A stretch of DNA of 64,000 nucleotides from Patescibacteria group bacterium. Lineage in GTDB: Bacteria > Patescibacteriota > Patescibacteriia > JAHJFT01. The stretch is taken from NCBI GenBank assembly GCA_028710985.1, contig JAQTTB010000001.1, positions 523,014 through 587,013 of the forward strand, given 5' to 3'. A program made the translations under genes and the position numbers. Positions 3,301-48,574 of this stretch are shown here, piece by piece (the first letter of the stretch is position 1; every line of letters starts with the position of its first letter). The notes under the pieces were generated by a model, which worked only from the letters and a program-made list of their open reading frames with translations, had not been told where the DNA came from and made no database searches.

Positions 3301-3769
3301 GTTTGCAAGAATTGAGGACACATCCGGAGATATTGAACTTATTATTTTTCCCAATACCTACCGTGATTTTAGCGCCGTTTGGCAGGCGGATAACACGATA
3401 ATCGTTTCCGGAAAAATTTCGGACAAAGATGGGGAACCGAAAGTAATAGTGAACAGCGCCTGCTCCGCGGATAAGGAAAATTGCATGCAGGCGCTTTCCA
3501 TTCTGGAAAACGGCGCCGGCTGGGCGCCGTCCGCGGCTTCTCTTTCGCGCGCGGTGCAGATCGAGATCCCGGGGAGTGCCGCTGGCGAAACTATGGCCCG
3601 GCTCAAGGAGGTACTTCTTGCGTATCCGGGCGGAGAGCGGGTGCGGCTCATAATTGGCAGCGGATACGCGGCCAAAAAAATCGAGCCCGATATTCGCGTG
3701 GATTATTCCGCCGGGCTTGTCGAGGCGGTTGGCGGCCTGCTCGGGCCCGAGAGTATTCGCATGGCGTAG
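302..3769 (+). CDS. dnaE: DNA polymerase III alpha subunit
   Basis: 1155 aa. N-terminal PHP domain (HLHTHSHYSLLDG) and PolIIIA core motifs. AGGAGG upstream of the ATG. Confidence 0.95.
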   Translation: MKFVHLHTHSHYSLLDGLGKIPALVSRAKELGMPALALTDHGAMYGAIEFYTTCRKEGIKPIIGVEAYVAPNRRFDKRPRIDDGAFHLVLLAETLEGYKNLLRLTSKAYLEGFYYRPRMDKEILREYSRGIIASTACLGGQIPRALMAERFEDAENLVTEYKSIFGADNFFLELQDHPELPEYEILNPRIMDLAKATGTPLIATKDIHYVYPDDRQAQDLLTCVQTGKTVNDTDRLNMANHDASMTSPEHMAEAFAHVPEAIENTVKIAERCNVEIPLGGNILPVFHVPTGESDNAYLRRLCEKGLGDRFPVAGPEIRERLEYELSTIERMGFASYFLIVSDFVNWAKDRGIMVGPGRGSAAGSIVSYVLKITDIDPLRYGLLFERFLNPDRISMPDIDLDFADDRRGEVIEYVVKKYGSDNVAGIITFGTMASRAAVRDVGRVLGWPYGEVDRIAKLIPPPIQGKHIPLVKSVKENPELRAVYEGDARVKELLDLSMKLEGTVRHASQHACGIVISDKPLTEYVPLQAVPDGDIDRVTQYSLHPIEDIGLLKMDFLGLANLTIIQNALDIIGAVYHEKIDIEKIPLDDKKAFELLGRGETTGVFQLESDGMKRYIKELKPTEMEDIIAMVALYRPGPMQWIDSFIRRKHGKERIEYEHPLMENALKNTYGIPVYQEQVMQVSKDMAGFTGGEADTLRKAMGKKIAALMKEMKDKFIKGAVKQGVARDKADKVFTRLEDFAAYGFNKSHATCYAMIAYRTAFLKARYPNCFMAALMNSDSQNIDRITIEVDECRKMGLEVLPPDVNESFGKFAIVPNTNKIRWGLSAIKNLGEDIVKTIVHERKANGNFRDLEDFISRINTKNFNKKSLESLIRSGALDLFGERNQLLQNIEILLEFHRGIQKEIESGQSSLFAGSPEVGRSRLTLRPVPAAPKRERLQWERELLGLYVTEHPFRELEEALGDAITRLSELAHRREGFVKIGGVLTTMKKILTRKNETMLFARIEDTSGDIELIIFPNTYRDFSAVWQADNTIIVSGKISDKDGEPKVIVNSACSADKENCMQALSILENGAGWAPSAASLSRAVQIEIPGSAAGETMARLKEVLLAYPGGERVRLIIGSGYAAKKIEPDIRVDYSAGLVEAVGGLLGPESIRMA

Positions 3770-3825: not shown

Positions 3826-5019
3826 ATGATACAAGACACTCAAAAACGCCAGGTGACGCGTAAGCCAGTCGCCCATATCGTAAAACAGCGTCCGCCCGCG
3901 GTACGCCTGTACCGCCGGATTGCTATCAGTTTTTTGATTCTGACAATTTTATTACTCGCCTTGGTGGCCTATCTTTCATTCTCTAGCGCCCATATTAAGA
4001 TATTCACGGCCGCCGAAACTGCAAGCGCTGAGTTTGTGGCCGACATCGTCAAGGTGGCGAGCGCGCCTAATCAGGTTGAGGGTAGGATCGTTGAGCGAAT
4101 ATTTGAAAAATCAAAAGAATTTACGCCGTCGGGCGAAGGCAAGACAACGCCAGCCAAGGCCGGCGGGGAAGTAACCATTATTAATAAATATAATAAAGAT
4201 CAGGCGCTCATTGCGACGACGCGTCTTCAGGCGACGGACGGAAAAATTTTTCGTATCGATAAGAGCGTCGTTGTACCGGCCGGCGGCGAGATAAAGGCGA
4301 CTGCTCATGCCGACAAAGAGGGCGCGGAATATGAAATCGGGCCGTCTCATTTCATTATCCCCGGGCTCTGGGAAGGGTTGCGTGACAAGATCTATGCCGA
4401 ATCCGCTTCTCCGATGACCGGCGGAACCGTAACTTTGAAAGTAGTGAGCGCCGACGATCTCACTCGCGCCGAGTCGGAGCTTGCAAGTGAAATATTAGAG
4501 CAGGTCAAGGCCGATTTAATCAGCGAGAACGCGGATCCGCGTTTCTCCAAACCGGTTTTTTCAATTGAAACGTTGGAAAAAGTTTCAGACACAATTCCTG
4601 GGCAGGAGGCTGACAAATTCACAATCAAGCTTAAGGTCAAGGTTATTGCGGTTTTCTATAATGCCGAACAAATGGACGGCGTGATGGCGTCCAAACTAGA
4701 GGAGGCCATGGATAGTGATCACACGCTCGGTGACATCATGGAAGACAGTATTATCTTCACGATTGGCCGCTATGATTCATCAACCGGAATTGTTAATCTC
4801 GCAGTGAGCGCGTTCGGCGAGGCGCGCCTCAAAGAGAACAGCCGGCTTTTGGACAAGCGGAAAATTACCGGCCTTGGCGTGGATGACGCTAAAAAGTATC
4901 TTATGAGTTCGCCGTCAATTGAGAATGTCGAAATTTCCTCAAGCCCGTTCTGGCTCAAGCGCGTCCCGAATTTGGAAGATCATATTGAATATGAAATAAT
5001 TTATGGAGGGACTGAATAA
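3826..5019 (+). CDS. hypothetical N-terminally membrane-anchored protein
   Basis: 397-aa ORF with a single TM helix (ISFLILTILLLALVAYLSF) after a basic N-terminus. No recognisable catalytic motif. Confidence 0.5.
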   Translation: MIQDTQKRQVTRKPVAHIVKQRPPAVRLYRRIAISFLILTILLLALVAYLSFSSAHIKIFTAAETASAEFVADIVKVASAPNQVEGRIVERIFEKSKEFTPSGEGKTTPAKAGGEVTIINKYNKDQALIATTRLQATDGKIFRIDKSVVVPAGGEIKATAHADKEGAEYEIGPSHFIIPGLWEGLRDKIYAESASPMTGGTVTLKVVSADDLTRAESELASEILEQVKADLISENADPRFSKPVFSIETLEKVSDTIPGQEADKFTIKLKVKVIAVFYNAEQMDGVMASKLEEAMDSDHTLGDIMEDSIIFTIGRYDSSTGIVNLAVSAFGEARLKENSRLLDKRKITGLGVDDAKKYLMSSPSIENVEISSSPFWLKRVPNLEDHIEYEIIYGGTE

Positions 5020-5024
5020 AAATT

Positions 5025-6818
5025 ATGGAAAAACATGACAAATTAGAAATCATGCGCCATTCGGCCGCCCATGTCATGGCCGCGGCCGTACAAAAACTTT
5101 TTCCGGATGCCAAGTTCGGCATCGGTCCGGTAATTGAGTGCGGTTTTTATTATGATTTTGACATCAGAGAGAATCTCACGCCCGAACATTTGGAGAAGAT
5201 AGAGAAAGAGATGGAGAAGATTATTAAAGAAAAAATTGAGTTTGAGCGCGAGGAAATGGATATCGAATCAGCTATCAATCTGTTCAAAAAACTTGGCCAG
5301 GATTACAAAGTTGAGCTTCTCCGCGATATCAAAGAGAAGGGCACTACGAAATTCAAATCCAGCGAAGAGCAGGAGCTCGTGCAGGAAGGAGAAAAAATTT
5401 CAATTTACCGCACCGGCGATTTCGTTGATCTCTGCCGCGGCCCTCATGTCAAAAATACTGGTGAAATAAAAGTCTTCAAACTTCTGAATCTTGCCGGAGC
5501 CTATTGGCGCGGTTCGGAAAAGAACCCCATGCTCCAGCGCATTTACGCCACGGCCTGGGAAAAACAGAAAGATCTGGACGAGTATCTTCGCGTCCAGGAA
5601 GAGGCCACCAAGCGCGACCACCGCAAGCTCGGCAAAGAGCTGGATATTTTCATATTCAACGAAAACATCGGCAAGGGCCTGCCTCTCTTATTGCCGAACG
5701 GCCGCGTTCTACGCGATGAGATTCTTAAGCTCGAGCGCGAGATTGAAGACACAGTCGGCTTTGAAAGGGTCTGGACTCCGCAAATCGCGAAAAGTGATCT
5801 CTACAAGCTCACTGGTCACTGGGACCATTATCAAGACACCATGTTTCCAGCTTTCGGCATGGAGGACGAAACCTACGTGCTCCGGCCGATGAACTGCCCG
5901 CATCACTACATGATTTATAAAAACAAGCCGCACAGCTACCGCGAACTGCCGCTGCGCATCACCGAAGACGGAACCTGCTATCGTTTTGAAAAATCCGGTG
6001 AACTCGGCGGACTCGCGCGCGTGCGCTGCCTTACAATTGATGACGCCCACATTTTTATTATGCCGAGCCAGATTGAAGAAGAATACCCGCGCCTCATCGG
6101 CATGGCGAAAAAGATGTTTGATGCGTTCCAACTCAAAGACTATTATGTCCGGCTTTCCACGCACGATCCGGAGAACACGGAAAAATATATTTCCGACCAG
6201 AATACCTGGAACAAGGCCGAAGCCCTGCTGGAAAAAATCGTCAAAGCGAATAACATCAAGTATGTTATCGGCAAGGGCGAAGCCGCCTTCTACGGGCCAA
6301 AGCTCGATTTCATCGTTCACGACGCCATCGGCCGCGAATGGCAGATGTCCACGCTTCAGATCGATTTCTTCATGGCCGAGCGGCTTGGCATGACTTATAT
6401 TGATGATAAGGGACAAGACGCTTATCCCATCATCATTCACCGTGGGTTCACCGGTTCACTTGAGCGCACCATCGCCATGCTGATTGAGCATTTCAGCGGC
6501 GCTTTTCCGGTCTGGCTCGCACCGGTTCAGGTGAAACTCATACCGGTCGGAGCCGGGCACATTGATTTTTGCGCCGCTTTGCACAAAGAATTTTTATCCC
6601 TGGGCATTCGTTCGCGCGTTGATGATGCCAATGAAACCGTGGGCAATAAAATCCGCAAGGCGGAAAAAGAAAAAGTACCCTACATGCTCGTGGTCGGGGA
6701 TAAAGAAATGAGCGGAGAAGAAATGACCGTCCGCGTTCGGGGAGAAAAGGACCAGATCAAGATGGCCAAGCCGGAATTTACAGAAAAAATCCTCGGCGAG
6801 ATAAAGAACCGGACATAA
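5025..6818 (+). CDS. thrS: threonyl-tRNA synthetase (short form lacking N-terminal TGS domain)
   Basis: HSAAHVMAAAV editing-domain motif and class II core (RPMNCPHH, GPKLDF), 597 aa. Confidence 0.93.
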   Translation: MEKHDKLEIMRHSAAHVMAAAVQKLFPDAKFGIGPVIECGFYYDFDIRENLTPEHLEKIEKEMEKIIKEKIEFEREEMDIESAINLFKKLGQDYKVELLRDIKEKGTTKFKSSEEQELVQEGEKISIYRTGDFVDLCRGPHVKNTGEIKVFKLLNLAGAYWRGSEKNPMLQRIYATAWEKQKDLDEYLRVQEEATKRDHRKLGKELDIFIFNENIGKGLPLLLPNGRVLRDEILKLEREIEDTVGFERVWTPQIAKSDLYKLTGHWDHYQDTMFPAFGMEDETYVLRPMNCPHHYMIYKNKPHSYRELPLRITEDGTCYRFEKSGELGGLARVRCLTIDDAHIFIMPSQIEEEYPRLIGMAKKMFDAFQLKDYYVRLSTHDPENTEKYISDQNTWNKAEALLEKIVKANNIKYVIGKGEAAFYGPKLDFIVHDAIGREWQMSTLQIDFFMAERLGMTYIDDKGQDAYPIIIHRGFTGSLERTIAMLIEHFSGAFPVWLAPVQVKLIPVGAGHIDFCAALHKEFLSLGIRSRVDDANETVGNKIRKAEKEKVPYMLVVGDKEMSGEEMTVRVRGEKDQIKMAKPEFTEKILGEIKNRT

Positions 6819-11100: not shown

Positions 11101-11155
11101 ATCGCCCGGTACGGGCGATATTTTTTTGTAGAGGTCGCATATATGTGACCTCTAC
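11101..11155. terminator. bidirectional double-hairpin terminator between miaA and gatB
   Basis: ATCGCCCGGTACGGGCGAT plus T-run, then GTAGAGGTCGCATATATGTGACCTCTAC (GCATATATGC-loop family). Confidence 0.6.
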
Positions 11156-11156
11156 A

Positions 11157-12665
11157 TTATTTTTGTAAAAATTTTTCAAGCAGAACCTTCGTGATATTCG
11201 GATCCGCGGTTCCTTCGGATTTTATCATCACCTGGCCGACAAAAAATTGGATGAGCGCGGTTTTTCCGGCGCGGTAGGCCTCGGCCTTGTCCGGATTATC
11301 TTCAACTACCTGGCGGACGATTTGTTCAATTTCCGCTACGTCGCTCATCTGCCCGAGTTCGCGGTCCTCCATAATCTGGCTCGGATCCTGGCCGGTTTCA
11401 AGCATGGCTGCAAGAATTTTTTGCCCGGCGGCGCTGCCGACCTTATTCGCGTAAATTAGGCTCACGAATTCGGCGAAATTTTCCGGCGTGATTTTCAGAT
11501 TCTTGATGTCAATATTTTTATCCGCCATGGCGCCCGCGAGCTTGGAGCAGAGCCATCCGCCGACAAGTTTCGCGAGTTTATTCTTGTTCTTTTCGTAAAT
11601 TTCTTCGGACGTGCCGTCCAGGTCCGGAACCGACGCCAGCCATTCCTTGAGTTCGCTCACGGTGTTTTCCGCGTATTCGGCCCAGTCGAGGTCGCTCGTA
11701 AGAAACCGCGCGTTCTCGCCCGAAAATCCGTATTCATCCATGAATCTTTTTCTCTTGGCGGCCGGAAGCTCCGGCAGGGCGGATTTTGCGCGGGTAATCA
11801 TGTCGCCCAAATCAAGCGGGGGAATATCCGGTTCGGGAAAATAGCGGTAATCTTGCTCGGCTTCCTTGACGCGTTGTTCCACGGTTTCGCCCGCATCTTC
11901 GTCCCAGCCGCGGGTTGACTGCTGGCTCGGCGGCTTCCCCTGTCCCCAGAGTTTTTCCTGGCGCATGATTTCATATTCCAGTGCGCGTTCAACGGCCTTG
12001 AATGAATTCAGGTTTTTGATTTCGGTTTTCGGAAACAGAGTCTGCGTATCGGCCGGCCGCAAGCTTACATTGGCGTCGCAGCGCAGCTCGCCGCGCTCCA
12101 TGTCGGCGTTGGAAACTCCGAGATAGCGCATAATTGTGCGCAGCTCTTGCAAAAAAATTTTGGCTTCAAACGGAGTCGCGATGTCCGGCGCGGTCACGAT
12201 TTCAATGAGCGGGGTGCCGCCGCGGTTGTAATCAACCAGCGTGGCGTCTTTTTCATCGTGAAAAGATTTAGCCGCGTCTTCTTCAAGATGCACCCGGATG
12301 ATATTTATGCGGGCATAGTTGCGCGGTCCCTTCGGAATTTCGATTTCAAGATAGCCGTCCTTGGCGATCGGCATGTCGTATTGCGATATCTGGTAGCCTT
12401 TCGGCAGATCCGGATAGAAATAATTCTTGCGGTCGAATTTTGAACGTTCCTGGATCGTGCAGCCCAGGGCCGCCGCGGCGCGAATGCCGAATTCAATGGC
12501 CGTGGAATTCACCACCGGCAAAGCGCCCGGCTGGCCGGTGCAAACCGAACAGACCGCCGTATTAGCCGGAGTGCCGTCCGGCACATTGGCGCACGGACAG
12601 AACATCTTGGTTTTAGTCTTGAGCTGAACGTGTATTTCCAGCCCGATGACTGGCTGATATTGCAT
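11157..12665 (-). CDS. gatB: Asp/Glu-tRNA amidotransferase subunit B
   Basis: Canonical MQYQPVIGLEIHVQL N-terminus; GatB/YqeY C-terminal domain. Confidence 0.95.
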   Translation of the reverse strand: MQYQPVIGLEIHVQLKTKTKMFCPCANVPDGTPANTAVCSVCTGQPGALPVVNSTAIEFGIRAAAALGCTIQERSKFDRKNYFYPDLPKGYQISQYDMPIAKDGYLEIEIPKGPRNYARINIIRVHLEEDAAKSFHDEKDATLVDYNRGGTPLIEIVTAPDIATPFEAKIFLQELRTIMRYLGVSNADMERGELRCDANVSLRPADTQTLFPKTEIKNLNSFKAVERALEYEIMRQEKLWGQGKPPSQQSTRGWDEDAGETVEQRVKEAEQDYRYFPEPDIPPLDLGDMITRAKSALPELPAAKRKRFMDEYGFSGENARFLTSDLDWAEYAENTVSELKEWLASVPDLDGTSEEIYEKNKNKLAKLVGGWLCSKLAGAMADKNIDIKNLKITPENFAEFVSLIYANKVGSAAGQKILAAMLETGQDPSQIMEDRELGQMSDVAEIEQIVRQVVEDNPDKAEAYRAGKTALIQFFVGQVMIKSEGTADPNITKVLLEKFLQK

Positions 12666-25700: not shown

Positions 25701-25730
25701 TGTATGGGTCGCATATATGCGCCCCGTACA
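25701..25730. terminator. bidirectional hairpin terminator (GCATATATGC-loop family)
   Basis: TGTATGGGTCGCATATATGCGCCCCGTACA between convergent genes. Confidence 0.55.
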
Positions 25731-25731
25731 T

Positions 25732-26583
25732 TTATTTTCCCCACCCAATTACTCTCACCCGTCCGCACATATCGTCATACGGTTTAATCCGGTCGCGCGG
25801 GCCGATAAATTTGATTATTTTTTTGCCCTGCTCGGGATCAATTTCGAAATATGACTGCATGGAGTTGAGATTTGGCAAAATTTTCCGAATCTCGTTGATT
25901 AGCCGTCCGTAATATTTAAGTCCGTCTTTGCCGCCGTCAAGCGCGGCGCGCGGCTCGTATTTTTTCACATCCGCGGGGCACTCGCGCCACACCGCGGTCG
26001 GAAGATAGGGGAGATTGGCCACGATCAAAATATTGGGATTCTTTTTCCAGAATTCAATCGGCAAAGCCTTGAGCAAATCGGATTTTATAAAATCAATCTT
26101 TGCGCCAAGTTTTTTCGCGTTTTGTCGCGCGGTCTTAAGCGCGGCCGCCGAATTATCAATCGCAATGACTTTTACGCGCGGCTTGTTTTTGGCAATCGCA
26201 ATGGCAAGCGCGCCCGAGCCGGTACCTACATCGATTACGGCTGCGCGCGGATGTTTATTCAAATACTTCAACGCCAGGCTCACAAGCATTTCGCTTTCCG
26301 GCCGTGGAATAAGAACCTTTTTATTCACGCCGATCTTGAGTTTGTAAAAATATTTTATGCCCGTGAGATAGGCGACTGGCTCATGCCTGGTGCGGCGCCG
26401 AATTAACTTGGTAAATCGCGCCAGCTCCGGTGCTCGCAATTCTCTGTCCCGGTGCGCGAACAAAAAAACCCGGTCGCGTCCGAGCGCGTGCGCCAATAGA
26501 ATTTCGGCATCGAGATCTGGTGAATCAATATGATTCTGTTGTAAAATTTTCATTGCCCTGGAAAGGGCTTGGGTGATGGTCAT
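25732..26583 (-). CDS. prmC: release-factor glutamine methyltransferase PrmC/HemK (with C-terminal extension)
   Basis: SAM-binding VIDVGTGSGA and NLPY (NPPY-type) motifs. Confidence 0.9.
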   Translation of the reverse strand: MTITQALSRAMKILQQNHIDSPDLDAEILLAHALGRDRVFLFAHRDRELRAPELARFTKLIRRRTRHEPVAYLTGIKYFYKLKIGVNKKVLIPRPESEMLVSLALKYLNKHPRAAVIDVGTGSGALAIAIAKNKPRVKVIAIDNSAAALKTARQNAKKLGAKIDFIKSDLLKALPIEFWKKNPNILIVANLPYLPTAVWRECPADVKKYEPRAALDGGKDGLKYYGRLINEIRKILPNLNSMQSYFEIDPEQGKKIIKFIGPRDRIKPYDDMCGRVRVIGWGK

Positions 26584-26617
26584 ATCGTTATCATATCATG
26601 TTTATTGCATCATTCGG

Positions 26618-26645
26618 TAGGGGCGTATTGCAATACGCCCCTACA
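26618..26645. repeat. REP-like perfect palindrome GTAGGGGCGTATTGCAATACGCCCCTAC
   Basis: 28-nt perfect inverted repeat. Member of the GTAGGGGCG...CGCCCCTAC family. Confidence 0.7.
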
Positions 26646-26776
26646 AGACGACCGCGCATTGACAACCCGGCGCGATTTTGGTACAAATCAATATCCCGCC
26701 GGAATATTTCCGGCCGGAAAACCATGGGTAAGGCTGGCGTCGCAATGCGGCGTTGGTAGGCCCAAGGAGGAAAGAG

Positions 26777-27388
26777 ATGTCCGAAAAGAAAATGATGAGT
26801 CCGAGGCAACTTCGCGAGCTCATGGCCGTGGTCAGCCGGCACCTGTCTATTCATCTGCCGGCCAAGGTGGCGCAGAGCGTGATCGACAAGCCCGGCGATT
26901 TGGAGTTTGAGCTCTGCGAGCTCTTCTGGCGCATCGCCGAAGCGAACGAGAAGGCAAGAAGGGCGGTGGAAGCGAAGCACATCATCGACTGCGACGCCGA
27001 CCCCTATCTGCTCGGCCTCTTCACCGTGGAAGAGCACCGGAGAAGCGGTCAGTTGGAGTGGGACCCGGACAAGGTCGTTCTTTACCTTTCCGATTTGCAG
27101 AGGGGTCGTAGTGTTGTCCAGGGCCACGCGCTCCGCAAGGAACTCCAAAATCAGTCGGTTCTGAACGCCTGCGTCCTGGATTACCTGCTCGTTCATCCAA
27201 ACCTCATTCCCATCATGTGGATGAGGATGCGGGTCTACTTCTGGGGTACGATTTATTGCGATCGAGAAGGTGACCTCTGCGTTCGCGGCCTCTTCTGGGA
27301 AGACGAAAAAGGGTGGTTCTGGCGCTACAAGCATCTTTCGCACGATTTCTACCGCGACGACACCGCGGCGGTTTCTGCAAGCGTCTAG
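26777..27388 (+). CDS. hypothetical Trp-rich protein
   Basis: 203-aa ORF (MSEKKMMSPRQL...) with a strong GGAGGAAAGAG SD. Bracketed by REP palindromes and a CCCGTTTGCATTAAATTGCAACGGG plus T-run terminator. Confidence 0.45.
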   Translation: MSEKKMMSPRQLRELMAVVSRHLSIHLPAKVAQSVIDKPGDLEFELCELFWRIAEANEKARRAVEAKHIIDCDADPYLLGLFTVEEHRRSGQLEWDPDKVVLYLSDLQRGRSVVQGHALRKELQNQSVLNACVLDYLLVHPNLIPIMWMRMRVYFWGTIYCDREGDLCVRGLFWEDEKGWFWRYKHLSHDFYRDDTAAVSASV

Positions 27389-27621
27389 TAGCGGCGCATT
27401 GCAATACGCTGCTACGCGCCGACCCCCTGACCCGTTTGCATTAAATTGCAACGGGTCTTTTTTATTTAAATGCGAGTAGGGGCGGACCCCTGCGTCCGCC
27501 CTGTTCGTCGGGCGTCCGCCCCTACCATTTGTCGTCACCAACAAACGGCCGGTCGTCGATTTTCACCGCGTAGGGGCGAACGGCCGTTCGCCCCTACCGT
27601 TGATCCGTAATACGCCCCTAC
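27388..27621. repeat. cluster of four GTAGGGGCG-family palindromes plus a half-site
   Basis: Palindromes at 27388-27415 (GTAGCGGCGCATTGCAATACGCTGCTAC), 27476-27526 (GTAGGGGCGGAC...GTCCGCCCCTAC) and 27570-27597 (GTAGGGGCGAACGGCCGTTCGCCCCTAC), plus the half-site AATACGCCCCTAC at 27609-27621. Confidence 0.7.
27429..27467 (+). terminator. intrinsic terminator of the 26777 gene
   Basis: GACCCGTTTGCATTAAATTGCAACGGGTC followed by TTTTTTATTT. Confidence 0.6.
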
Positions 27622-28475: not shown

Positions 28476-28545
28476 GCAGGGGCGTATTGTCGCGTAGGGG
28501 CGAACGGCCGTTCGCCCCTACCGTTGATCCGCAATACGCCCCTAC
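28476..28545. repeat. second copy of the GTAGGGGCG palindrome block
   Basis: GCAGGGGCGTATTG half-site, GTAGGGGCGAACGGCCGTTCGCCCCTAC (28494-28521) and the AATACGCCCCTAC half-site. The ~95-nt block 28487-28581 is near-identical to 27563-27657. Confidence 0.7.
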
Positions 28546-35572: not shown

Positions 35573-35578
35573 AAAAAG

Positions 35579-35606
35579 TACGGGTAGCATATATGCGACC
35601 CGTACT
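35579..35606. terminator. bidirectional hairpin terminator (GCATATATGC-loop family)
   Basis: GTACGGGTAGCATATATGCGACCCGTAC flanked by A7 and T8. Confidence 0.6.
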
Positions 35607-35610
35607 TTTT

Positions 35611-37233
35611 TTAATATAATTCTTCTTTTTTCTCTTTGAAGAAATTCACAAAATCTTCAAGCGATTCAATGAGCGCCTTGAACGGCGCTTCAATTATAAC
35701 GTCAAAGATAAATATAAAGAAGTTGATTTTTACGGATTTGAGCGACAGCCATCGGCCGAGCCGGACAATCGGCAAAAAGAGCAGGTCAAAAATCAAAGTT
35801 ATGATATTGCCGCTCGAGCGAATGACGATAAGTTCGTGCGCACTTTGCCGGATTCTGACCCCGAAAAAGCTGATTAAGCTCAGGAACACAATGAATATCG
35901 CGCCGCTCGCGATATTGAATTCAAGTCGGCGCAACCCGTAAATGATAAGTCCAAGGACTCCGACAAAAACCACGGCGTAGATAATATTAAAAATGAAAGT
36001 TACAATCGGGCTGCGGCGCACCACGGTTTGCATGACGATTTTCCCCTGCTCTTCGGGGCTCTTAAAAATTATTTCGCGTAAACCGTCAACGATTTTTTCC
36101 GTGTTCTTTTTGGAAGGAACACGCACCGTCGCGCCGAGGAAGAACATGAGGAGCGGCGGGAAGAGTACGTTTATAGTAACCGGAATGTAGCGGAATTCAT
36201 GGGCGATATAAATATCAAACGGTACCTCGAGGAGAACCGCAAGCACCATTTTTGTGAGAAAAATATAGATCACACTGCGCACCATGCTGCGGCGCAGTTT
36301 GCTCCGGGATTCGTGATAACGGCTGTCGCAGGATTTCCGTATTTCTGAAAAAAACGCTTCTTCCGGACGGAAGGCTGTGCGCGCGAGTTCCGGCTTCTCG
36401 AGGAGTACATCCCGCAGAATGTCGAAAAACACCGTATGCTGCCGGAAGATGCGCAACATTTTTTCGCCGACCGGTTTAACGGCGATGGATTCAATCATTT
36501 TTATTATTTTTTCAAATTCGCGTGCGTAATTTTCTAAATTCTGCTCGCTTGGGGATGACCATTCGGGCCACATCTTTCTTATCATTTCGTAGCGGATGAT
36601 GCCCATGTCGGCTTTCCAGAGAGAACGGAGGTTTGCCACAAAAAGGAGGTAGTCTTTTTCCAGCTCACTCACGCGCAGATCCACGAAATGAACTTTATTG
36701 CTGACCGTCTGCAGCATGAACTGGAGAAGCGCGCGTTCGCGGTCCTTGGGCAGGAGAAGATCCTCAATTTCCGCGGCCGCGGCGCTCCAGAGCCAGTCGA
36801 TATTGCTCCGGTTGTAGGCGCGCGGGTCGGTTTCATTGATTTTTTCTAAAAGAAAAAAATACTTGGAGAGCACCTGCTCTATTTCAAGTATCTTTGTTTC
36901 CGGCACCGTATTATTTTTAAGATATCCGCCGCGGATAAGTTCGTAGGTCAGCGGCCGCGCGATTTCCTGGGATTCAACCCCCGGATAGATGCGGCGTTTG
37001 AGTATCCTCTGGATTGCATTTTTCCGGAGCAGATGGTCGTCCTTATAGTCAACAATGTTGCGGAATCTTTCGTAGACATAGGCAAGCGCGCCGATGATTA
37101 CGTTCACCTGAATCTTTGCGGCACTGGGAGCCGATTCGCCGGCGTGCATTGCCCGTACGTATGAGCTTAAAAATTTTTCCACCAGGGGATATAACTTTAT
37201 GGCCGAGGTGTTTTGCTGATTTGGAATCATCAT
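35611..37233 (-). CDS. hypothetical large protein with C-terminal multi-TM domain
   Basis: 540-aa ORF. N-terminal soluble half and C-terminal half with about five hydrophobic helices. Confidence 0.5.
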   Translation of the reverse strand: MMIPNQQNTSAIKLYPLVEKFLSSYVRAMHAGESAPSAAKIQVNVIIGALAYVYERFRNIVDYKDDHLLRKNAIQRILKRRIYPGVESQEIARPLTYELIRGGYLKNNTVPETKILEIEQVLSKYFFLLEKINETDPRAYNRSNIDWLWSAAAAEIEDLLLPKDRERALLQFMLQTVSNKVHFVDLRVSELEKDYLLFVANLRSLWKADMGIIRYEMIRKMWPEWSSPSEQNLENYAREFEKIIKMIESIAVKPVGEKMLRIFRQHTVFFDILRDVLLEKPELARTAFRPEEAFFSEIRKSCDSRYHESRSKLRRSMVRSVIYIFLTKMVLAVLLEVPFDIYIAHEFRYIPVTINVLFPPLLMFFLGATVRVPSKKNTEKIVDGLREIIFKSPEEQGKIVMQTVVRRSPIVTFIFNIIYAVVFVGVLGLIIYGLRRLEFNIASGAIFIVFLSLISFFGVRIRQSAHELIVIRSSGNIITLIFDLLFLPIVRLGRWLSLKSVKINFFIFIFDVIIEAPFKALIESLEDFVNFFKEKKEELY

Positions 37234-43339: not shown

Positions 43340-43508
43340 CAATTTAATTTTTGCCGAAGATAACGGGGGTTTCAGCCAGAGGCTGAGGCTTAAAACCACA
43401 CCCCGTCGAGGTGAAATTCCGGCCTGACACTACTTTTAGGTCATGGACTCGGACCTCGTTATCTGCGGCAAAACCGCAGTTTATTTTTTACCCAAAGGTC
43501 GCAACTAT
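43340..43508 (+). ncRNA. rplJ (L10) leader with attenuator hairpin
   Basis: Structured 170-nt 5' UTR ending in CTGCGGCAAAACCGCAG plus T-run (43463-43490), just before the rplJ ATG. Confidence 0.5.
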
Positions 43509-44033
43509 ATGCCAAAAACAAGAGTACAGAAAGAAAATACCGTTTCCGACTTGGTCGACAAATTCAGCCGCACCAAGTCAGTGGTTTTTGCCGATTTTCA
43601 GGGGCTCAAAATGCCGGAAATCGACGAATTGCGCAACCAATGCCTAAAGCAGGGCATTTCTTACTCAGTCGCCAAAAAGACCCTGGTGCGCATCGCGCTT
43701 GAGAAAGCGGGCGTCAAAGAGATTGATCCAAAGTCAATTGAAGGTTCGCTCGCCACGGTTTTTGGATTTGAGGATGAGGTCGCGCCTGCAAAATTGCTCG
43801 CCACCTTCTCCAGAGCGCACGAGGCGCTCAAGATTAAAGCCGGCATACTTGAAGGCCGGCTCATTCCGTTCGAAGAAGTAATGAAGCTTTCTAAGATACC
43901 GTCAAGGCTTGAGCTTTATGCCATGCTCGTTCGTACCATGAATGGACCGGTTTCCGGATTCGCCAATGTTCTTGCTGGAAATCTGCGGAAATTTATGTAC
44001 GCATTAAACGCAATCAAAGAATCTAAATCATAA
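43509..44033 (+). CDS. rplJ: 50S ribosomal protein L10
   Basis: Start set at [11 protein letters not shown]10 fold. Confidence 0.9.
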
Positions 44034-44047
44034 ATAATTTTAAAAAT

Positions 44048-44452
44048 ATGGCAGAAGAGAAAAAAGACGTCGTGGTTCCGGAAAAATTCAAGAAGCTCGT
44101 TGAGGAAGTTGAAAAAATGAGCGTACTTGATCTCTCGGAACTCGTTAGCATTCTTGAGGATAAATTCGGCGTTTCGGCCGCCGCTCCGGCAGTTGCCGTT
44201 GCCGCCGCCGCTCCAGTCGCCGCCGAAGCCGCCGATGAAAAGACCGAGTTCAATCTTGAACTCCTTGAAGCCGGCGCCAACAAGATCAACGTGATTAAGG
44301 TGGTTCGTGAAGTCACGGGTTTAGGCCTCGCCGATGCCAAGGCCATCGTTGACAGCGCACCGAAGATAGTGAAAGAAGCCATGCCAAAGGCTGATGCCGA
44401 AGCCGCCAAAAAGAAGATTGAGGAAGCCGGCGGAAAAGCAGCTCTCAAATAA
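44048..44452 (+). CDS. rplL: 50S ribosomal protein L7/L12
   Basis: Ala-rich hinge and C-terminal domain ([24 protein letters not shown]). Confidence 0.95.
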
Positions 44453-44460
44453 TTGGTTAC

Positions 44461-44505
44461 AAAATAAAAAAAGAACGGCCGTGTAATTATGCGGCCGTTC
44501 TTTTG
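44461..44505. repeat. left 44-bp direct repeat / terminator hairpin flanking the RT module
   Basis: AAAATAAAAAAAGAACGGCCGTGTAATTATGCGGCCGTTCTTTT. Near-identical to 46289-46333 except for the 10-nt loop. Confidence 0.7.
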
Positions 44506-44554
44506 ATTTTTTTAAAAAAAGAGGCATCGCGTTTGCGATGCCCGAGCGGCGTAG

Positions 44555-45460
44555 TTAAATACCGAGTTTTCTTAATGCCCTCAGTCCGTTAAAGCGGTCG
44601 ACGAGCTTGGTTTCAGTGCGGTTGTGCGGAGCACAGTATTCGGTCGCCCCCCAGAAAGCGCCCATCATGCCAGCGGCCTGGGCAAAATTTGCACGGCCGC
44701 GTTTGACCGAGTACAGGCGGCCGCGTATCTTGCGCAGATAGTGCCGCGGGATAAAGATGCGGCTGGTCTTATCCATGGCAATGCCGTTGATGACCACCGG
44801 AGCCTTTTGGATGTCGCGGACAATGGATTTCTTATGGTTGATCTGGAATCCAGCCGCGAGAATGATGCGCCGTATCATCTGCCGCTTTCTTTTGCCGATC
44901 GGTTCAGTCGCCGAAAAGGTCAGGTCGTCGAGATAGCGCGTATAGATGATGCCGTGGCGCCGGCAGAATTCGCCGAGCGGCCGGTCAAGAAGTTCGCCGG
45001 CATAGCGGTTGGCAAGATCCGGCGAAGCCGGCGCGCCGGTTGCGAGCCCACCCTCGTCTGCTATGCAGTACTTATTAAGAAAGGCGAGAAGCCCTGTCTC
45101 GTCCTCCATCAGCCGTTCGTCAAGATTCATGAGTATCCCGGCGAGCCGCTCGGCGTCCACGCTCGGATAGAAATTGTGGATGTCGGTGAGGTAGAAAAAG
45201 CGGTTGCCGCGGTGCCGGAGCACATTTTTCTTGGGGGATGAGCCGCGCATCGCGCCGGTGGCGTGCGGCAGGGGATGGTGCTCGAGAAGGTGGCGCCGCA
45301 AGTAAAAGATTAGCCCGCGGTGGACCTGGCGCATCGCGTTATTTGGCGCGTAGAGCGTGCGCATTTTTACGGTCTTCGCTACCGGATTTACGTCTCTGTA
45401 GGTAAATTTGTTGAACCCCGGAGTCCCATCTATGTTTTTCAGAATTATATCAAAGAGCAT
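44555..45460 (-). CDS. stand-alone reverse transcriptase, retron- or defence-RT-like (301 aa, no maturase or endonuclease domain)
   Basis: RT motifs: HATGAMRGSSPKKNVLRH plus FFYLTDIHNFYPSVD (motifs 1-2), GLATGAPASPDLANRY (motif 4, the SP type), YTRYLDDLTFS (YxDD), AAGFQINHKKS (motif 7). AAGGAGG SD 5 nt before the ATG at 45460. TTGCAT, 17-nt spacer, TAAAAT promoter at about 45490-45520 on the minus strand. Confidence 0.8.
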   Translation of the reverse strand: MLFDIILKNIDGTPGFNKFTYRDVNPVAKTVKMRTLYAPNNAMRQVHRGLIFYLRRHLLEHHPLPHATGAMRGSSPKKNVLRHRGNRFFYLTDIHNFYPSVDAERLAGILMNLDERLMEDETGLLAFLNKYCIADEGGLATGAPASPDLANRYAGELLDRPLGEFCRRHGIIYTRYLDDLTFSATEPIGKRKRQMIRRIILAAGFQINHKKSIVRDIQKAPVVINGIAMDKTSRIFIPRHYLRKIRGRLYSVKRGRANFAQAAGMMGAFWGATEYCAPHNRTETKLVDRFNGLRALRKLGI

Positions 45461-45535
45461 GGCGCCCTCCTTATAGATTTTTGTGTAGGTTGATTTTAGT
45501 ACAGCGCCGAATAAAATGCAAGTAAATTTTTTTGG

Positions 45536-45916
45536 TATAAAAAACGCATCAAACCAGGGGTTTGACGCGAAGGGAGAAACCCGATTTTCATCGGGCAGTG
45601 AATTCACAGCGGCGGGTTGGCCAAGTTCGTTGCCCGATTCTGGGTTCTGCGGACAACGATCAAGAGAACAGACTTTGCCGCTGAGGCTTCGATGCAGGGC
45701 CGAAACGGCAGCGCCGAGGCCGCAGGCCGGGGCGCCCTCTGTGCCGAAAGAAGAAGAGAAGGGGCGGATACTATGGCAATTTCCGTTTCCGGAAATCCCG
45801 CTGGCGCACCTTGATGCGCCAACCCTCGTGGGCAAGAGCACTTTGGCGTCCAGCCAGAACCAGGAAACCGTCTTGGCCAACCCGGACTGGACTTGGCTTT
45901 ATCCTATCATAAACAA
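45536..45916 (-). ncRNA. structured ncRNA unit 1 upstream of the RT (RT-associated template/scaffold RNA candidate)
   Basis: No credible ORF or SD. Ends on the minus strand in GCGTCAAACCCCTGGTTTGATGCG plus a U-run. Shares conserved hairpins with unit 2. Confidence 0.4.
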
Positions 45917-46297
45917 AAAAACGCATCAAACCAGGGGGTTTGATGCGAAGAGAGAGAGTCCCGACTCGGTCGGGAAGAAAGTGCAGCGGCGGGTTTGAGT
46001 CATTGTCCGCAAGGGACTTTCCGGGCATGGGAGCTTGCCGCTGAAGATACCCGTGGCGTCCGAGGGCACTGAACAACGGGCCGAATCAGCCACTGCGGCC
46101 GCTGATCCGCCTCATGCAGATACCAACGGGAGCGCTTCGGGTTGCCCAGGGGCGATGGGGTACTGTTCAAAGCCCTGGTTTAACCCTTTGGCGCACCTGA
46201 AATGCGCCAAGACGATGAGCACCGAGGATCTCACCCGGAATGAACTAGCTCAAACCCAGCCAAGGTGGCTATGAAGAGGGTAGCATAAAATTCAAAA
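45917..46297 (-). ncRNA. structured ncRNA unit 2 (diverged tandem copy of unit 1)
   Basis: Ends in GCATCAAACCCCCTGGTTTGATGC plus U7. Same hairpin set as unit 1 with compensatory changes. Confidence 0.4.
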
Positions 46298-46333
46298 TAA
46301 AAAAAGAACGGCCGCGATATCGTGGGCCGTTCT
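46289..46333. repeat. right 44-bp direct repeat / terminator hairpin flanking the RT module
   Basis: AAAATAAAAAAAGAACGGCCGCGATATCGTGGGCCGTTCTTTTTT. Confidence 0.7.
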
Positions 46334-46336
46334 TTT

Positions 46337-48574
46337 TTATTCGCTGAATCCGAAATTCCAGACGCCGTTGTCGGCCAGCACCCAGATTTGGCGTGCCGTG
46401 CGATCGATGTAAAAACTTTTTATATTCTGCAGGTCGTTCAGGAGGTATTGAGTTTTGAGTTTACCGTCCTTGGCCAGTACTACAACACGTTTTCCGGCCG
46501 GGTCAAGAATAAATATATTGTCCGTACCCTCGGTCGTCCAAATTTGCGTCGCGCCCGTCAGCGCGGGATCAATGGTCGTAGCCGACCAGGATTGTTTTTC
46601 ACCGGTATAGAATTTATAAATTTCACCATTTGATTTCAGGGCGTAAATCGAGCCGTCAATCGTAATGGCGACTGCGTCCGAAAGATTGACATTCGCAGTT
46701 TTAATCCAGGCCGCGCCGGCCGCGAGCCCGGAATCGGGCGAGCGGTGCTGCTTAAATATTTGGTTCGCCGTGGTGTCCAAGACATAAATATTTGAATTCC
46801 AGCCGGCCGCGTCAATAAAGCTCTTTTGTTCGGCCGCGGCGGCGAGGGGAACGTCCCTCCACGAAAGTCCGGCCACGTCAATTTCCGAAGCCCCTGGGCG
46901 CTGGTCGAAAACCAAATATGAATTATCGCCGGATTTGTAAATCGCGGTAATGCTTTGTATATCCGCATTTTCCCAGTCAACTTCCTGCCAGGCATTCGCG
47001 TCGTCGCGCCAGACATAAAGTTCTTTTGCCCCGGAAAGAATCAAAGTTTTATCGGCGTTTCGCAGGAGATAACGAAAGTTAATCGTCTGGCCTTCGGCGC
47101 TGAGCGGCATGTCGGCGACTTTCTCTAAATCGTTTGGAATGACTTCATGGCGGAGCTCTTGGCGTAAAATATCAATTTGGGCGAGAAGTCCCTGTTTGAT
47201 TTCGCGCTGATCGCGCTTTGCTTCCGGTAGCGACTGGATTGCGGATAGCGCTTGGCTCACAAGCTCACGCGTGCGTTCCTCGTCGCCGTAGATCAGGGTA
47301 CTCTCGGCCTCGTCTTTTATTTGAGTGATCTCAATCACTTTATTATTATAAACCGCCTCGTCTTCGCGTGCATGTTTCCGATAGTTGAGATAAATCAGGC
47401 TCCATGCAAAAAGTAGCACCAGGATAAGGGCGATGATAAAAACCGATTTATTTTTCTTGCCGAGATGGCTGAACCAGCCGACCGAGCGGTCTCCGGTTTC
47501 CTGGGCATCGCTCTTATAGCTCGCGATGGTTTCGGCGCGTTTGCCGTGGAAGTTCGTAATGATAAAAAATAAGTTTTTGAAGAAGCGGCCGGTGATGCCG
47601 ATTGCGCGGAGCGTGATGGCACCGATCCAAATAAAGAATTTGGCAATGCTCCGGGGGAGTTCGCGCGGGGTTGGAGCGATTTTTTCCTCATATTTCGGGC
47701 CGCGTATTGGTATCAGTCGTGAAATTACCGCAGTGAGCCCAGCCCAAATCTTTGAGGCAAACCCAGTGCCGCCGCCTAAAAGATATCGGTCGGTTTCCGC
47801 GGTAGTCGCCTTAAGATGCTCAAGCGAACCTCGGAAATTCTTCGGTGCCGCCGCTTCGGTGCCGACCGGGATAAGTTCTTCATAATGCTGGATGATAATG
47901 GCCGTATATCCGCCGCGCAGACTGCCGTGCAAAAGTTCATTGCGCAGATATTCGACGGATTCGACCGGTTTTTTCGCGGTTACAATCGGCAACAGCCGTT
48001 CTTCGGGGAAGGCTTCGGCCAGTTCGGAGTTTGAGATTATTATGGCATCCCCGCTTTGGATGGAGCCGTACATTACATTTTCAAAAATTTTAACGGGATT
48101 AAAATTATCCGGATCGGATTGAACGTTCTTCGTAAGATCAAAAACGCGGTAACCTTTGCCATCCTGCTTCTGGAAAAACATCATTTTATTCTGGCCGATC
48201 GCGGAGAACGAAAGGTCCGTGCCGGAGCAAGCGGCGATTAAGATATTCAATTTCTTAAGATCCACCGGATTGGATTCTTTGGAGATAAAATCCGTGATAT
48301 TTTTATTGGTCGCCTGTAGGGATTTTTCAAACTCCGCGCCAAAGTCAATGCCATGCTCTTCCTGATAAAATTTTTCAATGCCGTCGATAAAGTTTTCGGT
48401 CAAACGTTCGTAGGCTGGATGGATGGAGTCGATTTTAATAATGCCAAAAATAGATCCGCCTTCATGCGCCGCACCCGGTGGAATTTCAAAATTAAAAACG
48501 CGGTTAATGCATTGGCGGTTCGTTGCGCTTTCTAGGAAAAGCTCGTTTATGAGTATCTCCGGCTTCTTTGACAT
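46337..48574 (-). CDS. large membrane protein: cytoplasmic N-domain, one TM helix, extracellular repeat (beta-propeller-like) domain
   Basis: 745-aa ORF. TM helix VFIIALILVLLFAWSLIYL in the middle. C-terminal half has repeated blocks (NIYVLD, SIYALK, NIFILD). Confidence 0.6.
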   Translation of the reverse strand: MSKKPEILINELFLESATNRQCINRVFNFEIPPGAAHEGGSIFGIIKIDSIHPAYERLTENFIDGIEKFYQEEHGIDFGAEFEKSLQATNKNITDFISKESNPVDLKKLNILIAACSGTDLSFSAIGQNKMMFFQKQDGKGYRVFDLTKNVQSDPDNFNPVKIFENVMYGSIQSGDAIIISNSELAEAFPEERLLPIVTAKKPVESVEYLRNELLHGSLRGGYTAIIIQHYEELIPVGTEAAAPKNFRGSLEHLKATTAETDRYLLGGGTGFASKIWAGLTAVISRLIPIRGPKYEEKIAPTPRELPRSIAKFFIWIGAITLRAIGITGRFFKNLFFIITNFHGKRAETIASYKSDAQETGDRSVGWFSHLGKKNKSVFIIALILVLLFAWSLIYLNYRKHAREDEAVYNNKVIEITQIKDEAESTLIYGDEERTRELVSQALSAIQSLPEAKRDQREIKQGLLAQIDILRQELRHEVIPNDLEKVADMPLSAEGQTINFRYLLRNADKTLILSGAKELYVWRDDANAWQEVDWENADIQSITAIYKSGDNSYLVFDQRPGASEIDVAGLSWRDVPLAAAAEQKSFIDAAGWNSNIYVLDTTANQIFKQHRSPDSGLAAGAAWIKTANVNLSDAVAITIDGSIYALKSNGEIYKFYTGEKQSWSATTIDPALTGATQIWTTEGTDNIFILDPAGKRVVVLAKDGKLKTQYLLNDLQNIKSFYIDRTARQIWVLADNGVWNFGFSE

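Follow-up and report, generated by a model that had tools for sequence, protein, structure and literature searches.

Retrons are, to our knowledge, regarded as non-mobile, and the route by which they reach new chromosomal sites is largely unknown. Here we describe a small retron-like reverse transcriptase (RT) module that lies between two copies of a hairpin-containing repeat in a 64,000-nucleotide stretch of a metagenome-assembled genome (MAG) from the Patescibacteria, or candidate phyla radiation (CPR); this whole stretch (contig JAQTTB010000001.1, positions 523,014 to 587,013) is referred to below as the window. The closest precedent for such a module is Retron-Eco5 (Ec107) of E. coli, a minimal retron without mobility genes which replaces a 34-bp palindromic intergenic sequence (PMC6868368), and a second point of comparison is Retron-Nex1 (Ne160), with duplicated msr-msd copies and no RT nearby (PMC6868368). 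Within the CPR, about 80% of the RTs have been reported as belonging to diversity-generating retroelements (DGRs) (PMC8632793).

The module in the window spans 1.78 kb (1,784 bp between the repeats), has a GC content of 54-58% as against 43-50% in its flanks, and is organized entirely on the minus strand, where it comprises the gene for a 301-aa RT and two tandem structured non-coding RNAs (ncRNAs); inspection of the open reading frames (ORFs) of the module found no gene between the repeats other than that of the RT. The observations presented below suggest that it was probably inserted at a single ancestral bidirectional terminator, shared by rplL on the plus strand and a 745-aa gene on the minus strand, with duplication of a target of about 49 bp.

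The two repeat copies are 45-49 bp long (49 nt by extension in the repeat finder), and each consists of an A-tract, a hairpin and a T-tract. The first-pass annotation of this DNA had proposed that near-identical terminator-containing repeats delimit the RT module, and both strings that it quoted occur exactly in the window (44461-44504 and 46294-46338), with the RT gene and the ncRNA units filling the interval between them; its placement of the right copy at 46289-46333 picks out the correct repeat but lies about 5 nt too far to the left. Its further statement that only the loop differs is accurate for the outer portions, namely identical blocks of 22 nt (a C, the interrupted A-tract and the 5' arm) and 12 nt (the 3' arm and TTTT), but not for the rest, as the right copy has one C fewer in the 3' arm than the left and the 3' flanks are slightly different (TTTTGATT versus TTTTTTATT). 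The interrupted A-tract of 13 nt falls within this identity. In the hairpin centre of 10-11 nt, only 5 of 11 positions match, such that the mismatches are strongly concentrated there (0/34 outer versus 6/11 central positions; Fisher p = 5.7e-5). Both of these unrelated centres can nevertheless still pair, with three inner pairs changed on both sides and all 34 outer positions identical. The 21-mer AAAATAAAAAAAGAACGGCCG occurs exactly twice on the plus strand of the window, against 0.01 occurrences expected from shuffles.

Given their strong hairpins between A- and T-tracts, both copies look like bidirectional intrinsic terminators, a function that is predicted from the sequence. The left copy begins 8 nt past the rplL stop and, on the minus strand, forms a second terminator-like hairpin behind the RT gene. 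At the other end of the module, the stop codon of the minus-strand 745-aa gene (46339-46337) falls within the right copy.

Homologues of the 745-aa protein share 53-62% identity with it, and the contigs of three of them (P0073, P0075 and P0080), spread over the tree, were fetched for an analysis of synteny. All three relatives conserve the order Caroten_synth, Cas4/RNase_H, Peptidase_C39, rplJ and rplL on one side, and the 745-aa gene followed by genes of ~197, ~135 and ~491 aa on the other. In each of them rplL and the 745-aa gene converge, with their stops 57-58 bp apart and no RT between them, and the spacer contains a single A-tract/hairpin/T-tract unit whose stem varies between genomes. 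The terminator of the relative L008 has AAAAAAAGAAC...GTTCTTTTTTATT in common with the window, and that of L006 the interrupted A-tract AAAATAAAAAA. As the single terminator of the relatives resembles the window copies in the A-tract or outer stem, both of the latter appear to be duplicated resident sequence; and as the relatives keep the gene order with one terminator and without the RT, the module is best understood as an insertion. In a midpoint-rooted neighbour-joining tree the window lineage branches between empty-site lineages, which makes one gain more parsimonious than at least two precise losses. The suggestion in the first-pass annotation of an insertion or recombination event at a terminator hairpin, for which it had proposed the inspection of empty sites in related genomes, is thus supported by three related lineages with a single terminator and no RT, and also by the repeats around other members of the RT family.

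This family comprises about 65 proteins sharing 40-51% identity, nearly all of them from the CPR or from groundwater metagenomes, and 65 of its loci were fetched for comparison (L-numbers denote individual loci). In 45 loci, up to 2 kb upstream of each RT was compared with 600 nt downstream for exact direct repeats of at least 17 nt. Flanking repeats, with lengths of 20-145 bp, were detected in 7 of the 45, constituting six independent cases, as against none in 312 controls (0/180 sliding pseudo-modules elsewhere in the window and 0/132 in the empty-site contigs). A terminator-like hairpin lies within the flanking repeat in five of the six. The repeats enclose exactly the RT and its ncRNA, which in L162 and L163 is downstream of the RT, and the inserts between them measure 1.3-3.2 kb. 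The module ends at its own terminator in four of the six cases, followed in the window by an A7 run. No sequence similarity or common core links the repeats of one locus to those of another, nor is there any conservation of the module ends.

The individual cases illustrate the range of resident sequences that have been duplicated. In the window the exact flanking block is 22 nt long. In L131 the repeat (35 nt, 89% identity) is the terminator of a SET-domain gene, and the module's own promoter lies between the repeats, about 40 nt inside the upstream one. L162 shows a 33-nt hairpin repeat whose copies have a single difference, located at the centre of the loop, and L179 a 20-nt repeat, made up of an A-tract and the 5' arm of a hairpin, around a 3.2-kb module that includes a 521-aa gene with an HD-like motif. 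The 145-nt repeat of L163 and L164 is present in three copies and consists of a terminator, a promoter and a ribosome-binding site (RBS); those of L163 (33-176, 1059-1203 and 2613-2757) precede a UbiA-like membrane protein, the RT and a pyrE-like gene respectively, in a layout like that of a cassette array with the RT using a duplicated RBS. Finally, the repeat of L159 (119 nt, 91% identity, with an 87-nt exact block; copies at 3320-3438 and 5008-5126) corresponds to what we take to be the 5' end of a miaA-like gene, from its GPTASGKS P-loop N-terminus. Here the RT module has entered the gene within its 5' part: the upstream copy has the native start (MNNHKLIVILGPTASGKS...) and is cut off by the module after about 40 codons, and the downstream full gene starts with MQKLIVIL, differs only synonymously, and has a longest ORF that overlaps the RT stop (ATGA), which suggests a possible translational coupling. 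The diverged part of this repeat holds five changes, all of them synonymous (p about 3e-4). Across loci the differences between copies favour the hairpin loop or centre (3 of 8 in the ~6-nt loop of L163, and the sole, central one of L162), a bias that could reflect either faster loop evolution or a hairpin-specific mutational process. We rejected the idea that the two loops of a pair are reverse complements, since this is so in a trivial sense in L162, with its single central C/G, and fails in the window, L131 and L163.

Profile comparisons place the RT near the retrons. The PADLOC retron RT models match it with E-values of 1.6e-34 to 1e-23 (1.3e-29 for RT_Ec107-like), its top PDB matches are all retron RTs (2e-19 for Ec86), and its best NCBIfam match is retron_St85_RT at 116 bits, under the 235-bit cutoff of that model. 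In contrast, TIGR04416, the model for group II RTs, gives 22.4 bits where its cutoff is 300, and Drt2 (25.8 bits) and Drt3a (31.8 bits) are likewise far under their cutoffs. The next nearest relatives of the family are the St85-like retron RTs, at 32% identity. These matches suggest that the RT belongs to the retron RT clade, and as it reaches no curated family threshold it would represent a divergent clade therein. Its start (ATG at 45460-45458, with the RBS AAGGAGG at 45472-45466) defines a 301-aa protein that agrees with the family and with the strong RBS, and the public gene calls of 350 aa (NCBI) and 441 aa (Logan) carry spurious N-terminal extensions into the ncRNA (44555-45880). Profile and PDB searches detected no endonuclease or DNA-binding extension in the 301-aa protein.

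The ncRNA that accompanies the RT is defined across the family by a double hairpin with compensatory changes in 13 of its 14 pairs. A covariance model of this element yields about 50 hits above noise (E < 0.01), every one of them on the RT strand, in some 46 of the 65 fetched loci. Closer relatives have the ncRNA upstream of the RT and more distant ones have it downstream, always on the same strand as the RT; the latter arrangement includes L146, L149, L150, L152, L153, L161-L164, L167 and L173. Alignments and duplex predictions revealed further conserved elements, namely a U/C-rich tract, the motif CCUCAGCGG, and CCGCUGA just 3' of the closing helix. A long a1/a2 closing helix whose sequence varies by locus was recognized by eye in L131, L133, L134, L140, L143 and L002; RNAduplex over-extends across whole flanks, and was used only for this reading of the core helices.

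In the window, the proximal unit has a closing helix of 31 nt (a1 at 45884-45854, a2 at 45643-45613), the family-defining double hairpin (45827-45770), CUCAGCGGC at 45685-45677, GCCGCUG at 45613-45607, a small hairpin (45595-45580) and a terminator (45569-45545) with a T-run. The distal unit, 73% identical to the proximal one with indels, retains hairpin 1, the closing helix, GCCGCUG, the small hairpin and the same terminator (45947-45922), and its hairpin 2 is degenerate. Accordingly, the covariance model R1 scores 44.5 bits (E 2.5e-10) on the proximal unit and only 4.7 bits on the distal one. Both units nonetheless fold better than shuffled sequences (z = -4.2 and -3.7, respectively). Rfam returned nothing at gathering level for the RNA of the module, and at E <= 1 only sub-threshold terminator-containing families. 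A reading of the two units as the template and variable repeats of a DGR was rejected, given that they are non-coding, differ by indels and at all base types, and fold as the family ncRNA, and that the RT is retron-like.

Several side observations concern the organization of these RNAs. Tandem arrays comprise two units in the window and three in L002 (5031-5875) and L003 (5048-5876), and L150 gave two hits (5077-5437). In the window each unit has a terminator and the RT a separate promoter, downstream of the terminator of the proximal RNA, whereas in most relatives a single RNA runs into the RBS of the RT. The CUCAGCGGC and GCCGCUG motifs are mutually complementary and lie on either side of the closing helix's 3' arm (45677-45685/45607-45613 and 46037-46045/45984-45990), and in L140 the two are altered together (CAGCAG/UUGCUG). 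This complementarity, and a possible pairing of CUCAGCGG with CCGCUGA, suggest a candidate pseudoknot or alternative helix. The coordinates of the features at the locus are collected in Table 1.

Table 1. Features in and around the RT module, in coordinates of the window
Feature	Position	Strand	Basis and remarks
rplJ	43443-44033	+	Pfam Ribosomal_L10
rplL	44048-44452	+	Pfam Ribosomal_L12_N, Ribosomal_L12; resident operon ended by the left repeat
Left repeat copy	44460-44508 (hairpin 44469-44504)		Repeat finder; fold -24.2 kcal/mol
Predicted intrinsic terminator of the RT gene (GGGCATCGCAAACGCGATGCC + T7), then A7	44515-44543	-	9 pairs, 6 of them GC; 3' end of the module
Retron-type RT, 301 aa, YLDD active site	44555-45460	-	Pfam RVT_1, retron RT models
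Sigma-70-like promoter of the RT gene (TTGCAT, 17-nt spacer, TAAAAT)	45493-45521	-	Consensus match only
Proximal structured ncRNA, ~377-378 nt	45539-45915	-	Fold z = -4.2; covariance model R1, 44.5 bits
Distal structured ncRNA, ~377-378 nt	45916-46292	-	Fold z = -3.7; alignment to the proximal unit
Right repeat copy	46293-46341 (hairpin 46300-46338)		Repeat finder; fold -23.4 kcal/mol
Resident 745-aa gene	46337-48574	-	No Pfam match; synteny in RT-less relatives

The genomic contexts of the family are unrelated, with no neighbour cluster common to more than four of the 60+ loci. The 745-aa gene was considered as a retron effector and ruled out, as it is resident in relatives that lack the RT. 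Given the lack of any conserved neighbour, and with the 745-aa gene belonging to the resident sequence, the family appears to be an effector-less, CPR-specific module of a retron-like RT and an ncRNA; the only candidate effector seen is the divergent 521-aa gene with an HD-like motif that lies beside the RT, inside the repeats, in L179 (2176-3741). Each fetched locus carries a single copy of the module, which shows stability between related genomes (L002/L003 and L134/L135), and no member of the RT family was found among the viral contigs of IMG/VR. We found no description of this RT-ncRNA family in the searchable literature, and it is apparently undescribed. In two independent lineages a gene of the XerC/phage-integrase family is situated directly upstream of the ncRNA and RT (L002 3946-4932 and L003 3959-4945; L172 115-1047), and in these three loci no flanking repeats were found.

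Taken together, these observations suggest the following scenario. A foreign module of 1.78 kb, bringing two tandem ncRNAs, an RT and its own promoters and terminators, would have entered the resident terminator, and the A-tract, the whole hairpin and the T-tract would have been duplicated, leaving both flanking genes with an intact terminator and insulating the module at either end. The right copy would end the transcript of the 745-aa gene and shield the ncRNA array, and the left copy would end the rplJL transcript and reinforce the terminator of the RT gene. Among insertions into a compact genome, those that regenerate the signals of their neighbours might be the only ones to survive, and such selection would leave as surviving scars whole terminators, a terminator with promoter and RBS as in L163, or the 5' end of a gene as in L159. 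As for the route, we prefer a host-driven, non-site-specific event at the hairpin, to which we would assign about half of the weight given to the insertion scenario as a whole. Such an event could have been template switching during replication at a stalled hairpin, or else recombination of incoming DNA carrying a copy of the site, either one-sided homologous combined with illegitimate or of the Campbell type. Over a transposase, an integrase or target-primed reverse transcription, a host process is favoured by the variable length of the repeats, the unconserved module ends, the lack of a recombinase or endonuclease, the internal promoter of L131, and the vertical stability of the module in single copy.

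Certain observations weigh against this scenario. The two hairpin centres have diverged almost completely alongside 34 identical flanking positions, and the changes in L159 are all synonymous; uniform drift after a plain duplication does not account for either pattern. The window pattern would require that the outer stem and tracts be constrained, that gene conversion took place, or that the site existed as two different alleles. In L159, a donor allele would explain the all-synonymous divergence better than simple duplication does. If the tree were rooted on the window branch, one loss would be as parsimonious as one gain. The databases hold no relative above 62% protein identity, and hence the insertion is undated and there is no fresh empty site; exact look-ups of the RT, the 745-aa protein and RplL returned the same filled contig and no strain variant with an empty site. 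A comparison of L162 with L193 gave no empty site either, as synteny ends 240 nt past the stop of a glycosylase gene (98% identical between the two) and before the repeat. Furthermore, repeats are present in only 6 of about 44 independent loci, and the terminator function of both copies is a prediction. The two window copies would be either two recombined alleles, or products of an inner hairpin that evolves much faster than the outer stem and tracts; the comparison of the orthologous terminators of L008 and the window makes such faster evolution possible.

Of the alternatives to the insertion scenario, site-specific recombination at attachment (att) sites has the most in its favour. Under this explanation a tyrosine recombinase, of the Xer type or associated with an element, integrated a circular module carrying its own hairpin, and the repeats are attL/attR hybrids. 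A block of identity next to a diverged remainder, together with a single copy at empty sites, is what such a process would leave; XerC-like integrase genes directly precede the ncRNA array in L002 and L003 and, independently, in L172; and the element-proximal part of the L159 repeat has the look of a second functional allele for the 5' end of miaA, comparable to islands that rebuild the gene end at which they integrate. However, neither Pfam nor tblastn with two family-adjacent integrases detected an integrase in the module or in the 64-kb window, the repeats of the six loci vary from 20 to 145 bp with no common core, and the very loci with an integrase gene lack flanking repeats. The description of the repeats as attachment-site-like in the first-pass annotation therefore stands as regards geometry, i.e. 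a repeat around an insert and a single copy at the empty site, but not as regards a site-specific recombinase or a shared core, and we consider this explanation unlikely.

Autonomous retromobility is another explanation, in which the RT would copy the transcript of the module and, through target-primed reverse transcription, place the copy at terminator hairpins with long, variable duplications. Non-LTR retrotransposons, i.e. those without long terminal repeats, are known to produce target-site duplications of this kind. The presence of an RT and structured RNAs in the module, the long and variable duplications with a terminator-like hairpin in five of six, and the termination of the module at its own terminator in four of six, with the A7 run in the window, are consistent with such a process. 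Nevertheless, the 301-aa RT has no endonuclease or DNA-binding extension; and the promoter of L131 and the internal promoters and terminators of the window module all lie between the repeats, for which reason the module does not appear to be a copy of its own transcript. The unconserved ends, the occurrence once per fetched locus, the stability between related genomes and the absence from the viral contigs also argue against it, making this explanation quite improbable.

It is very unlikely that the flanking hairpins are a coincidence, that is, two members of a terminator or repetitive extragenic palindromic (REP)-like family that is reused at many operon ends and happens to flank the RT. This alternative, which the first-pass annotation had also raised, draws on the presence of other palindrome families in the window, with four and three copies, and on the bare stem AAGAACGGCC-N8-16-GGCCGTTCTT, which a collection-wide contig scan recovered in at least 120 unrelated bacterial genomes with one palindromic site each and which is on account of this recurrence a generic terminator sequence. 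Against it, a search with up to three mismatches detected no third copy of the GAACGGCCG hairpin in the 64-kb window; the many further copies at ordinary operon ends that this alternative predicts are accordingly not seen there, the hairpin being confined to these two sites. The identity also spans the 13-nt interrupted A-tract, the relatives have exactly one terminator at the site, and repeats occur around family members and not around control segments.

Equally improbable is an ancestral module that was deleted elsewhere by precise repeat-to-repeat recombination leaving one terminator, for although such a deletion yields exactly the observed empty site and a single loss is compatible with the unrooted tree, it entails at least two independent precise losses under midpoint rooting, sits poorly with a module GC content above that of the flanks and with a patchy RT family in unrelated contexts, and leaves the origin of the duplication unexplained. 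A transposon or insertion sequence was rejected in view of the variable duplications of 20-145 bp, the unconserved module ends and the lack of a transposase ORF in the module, and a group IIC intron in view of the lack of group II RNA domains in Rfam and an intron-type RT score far under the cutoff.

Some further features of the window and of the loci compared were noted in passing. The two dispersed palindrome families of the window, which are REP-like or terminator-like, are GTAGGGGCG...CGCCCCTAC (26617-26653, 27388-27424, 27570-27606 and 28494-28530) and TGTAGAGGTCGCATATATG...TACA (11127-11164, 25701-25738 and 35577-35614); two copies of the former contain the core GAACGGCCGTTC, which is the same as the outer stem of the RT-flanking repeats. 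The window also has a tandem duplication with a period of ~925 bp (27567-27873/28491-28802), comprising an 88-nt intergenic block with 99% identity and, at 87% identity, the first 173 nt of the adjacent genes for 239 and 200 aa. The glycosylase mentioned above is an HhH-GPD-like DNA glycosylase of ~322 aa (L162 5929-6897; also in L193 and L195) that is 80-98% identical across very many CPR contigs from different CPR groups and with different gene contexts, an unusually high conservation which suggests horizontal spread.

The comparison of a filled and an empty site at this locus, together with six independent modules, makes the insertion of small RT modules into compact genomes directly testable. 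In all six the scar is of one type, a long duplicated stretch that may be a terminator hairpin, the 5' end of a gene or an intergenic control region. The RT-ncRNA family to which they belong is apparently undescribed; its RNA covaries and also occurs in tandem arrays, and it has no effector. If the duplication is a by-product of host recombination, it constitutes a well-documented insertion scar of modest interest. Were the module instead a self-mobilizing retroelement that inserts at intrinsic-terminator hairpins, it would represent a class of bacterial retroelements distinct from group II introns and the first mobile relatives of retrons; the evidence leans against this possibility, to which we accord a low probability.

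The module can be compared with several known systems. Integrase-mediated genomic islands are flanked by att direct repeats that restore their target, such as the 3' ends of tRNA genes or the 5' end of dusA, and the present modules resemble them in that repeats of the target flank the insert, with one copy at the empty site, and in that the duplicated miaA 5' end of L159 keeps the gene intact; they differ in the lack of an integrase in the window, in having no core shared between loci, and in the small size of the inserts (1.3-3.2 kb). Group IIC introns, which integrate immediately 3' of terminator hairpins and do not duplicate them, are likewise RT-encoding elements at intrinsic terminators, but the window has no group II intron RNA in Rfam and the group II RT model falls far short of its cutoff (22.4 bits versus 300). 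The defence-associated RTs (DRTs) DRT2 and DRT9 are stand-alone RTs with a structured ncRNA and no separate effector gene, a composition shared by the window module, although the sequence affinity of its RT is to retrons and not to the UG (unknown group)/DRT RTs. With the retrons it shares a retron-type RT and an adjacent structured RNA on the same strand with a1/a2 pairing, and it lacks an effector gene; by such sequence-level criteria it may be called retron-like. It resembles Nex1 in having multiple copies of a retron RNA, two in the window and three in L002 and L003, and differs from it in that the array directly precedes the RT. From the named retrons as a group it is set apart by an RT of a distinct CPR clade, with at most about 32% identity to theirs, and by two tandem RNAs with no effector. 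Its likeness to Ec107 lies in a small module of the msr-msd-RT type, without mobility genes, at a palindromic intergenic site between housekeeping genes; yet Ec107 replaces its palindrome, whereas the module in the window is flanked by a duplicated palindromic terminator.

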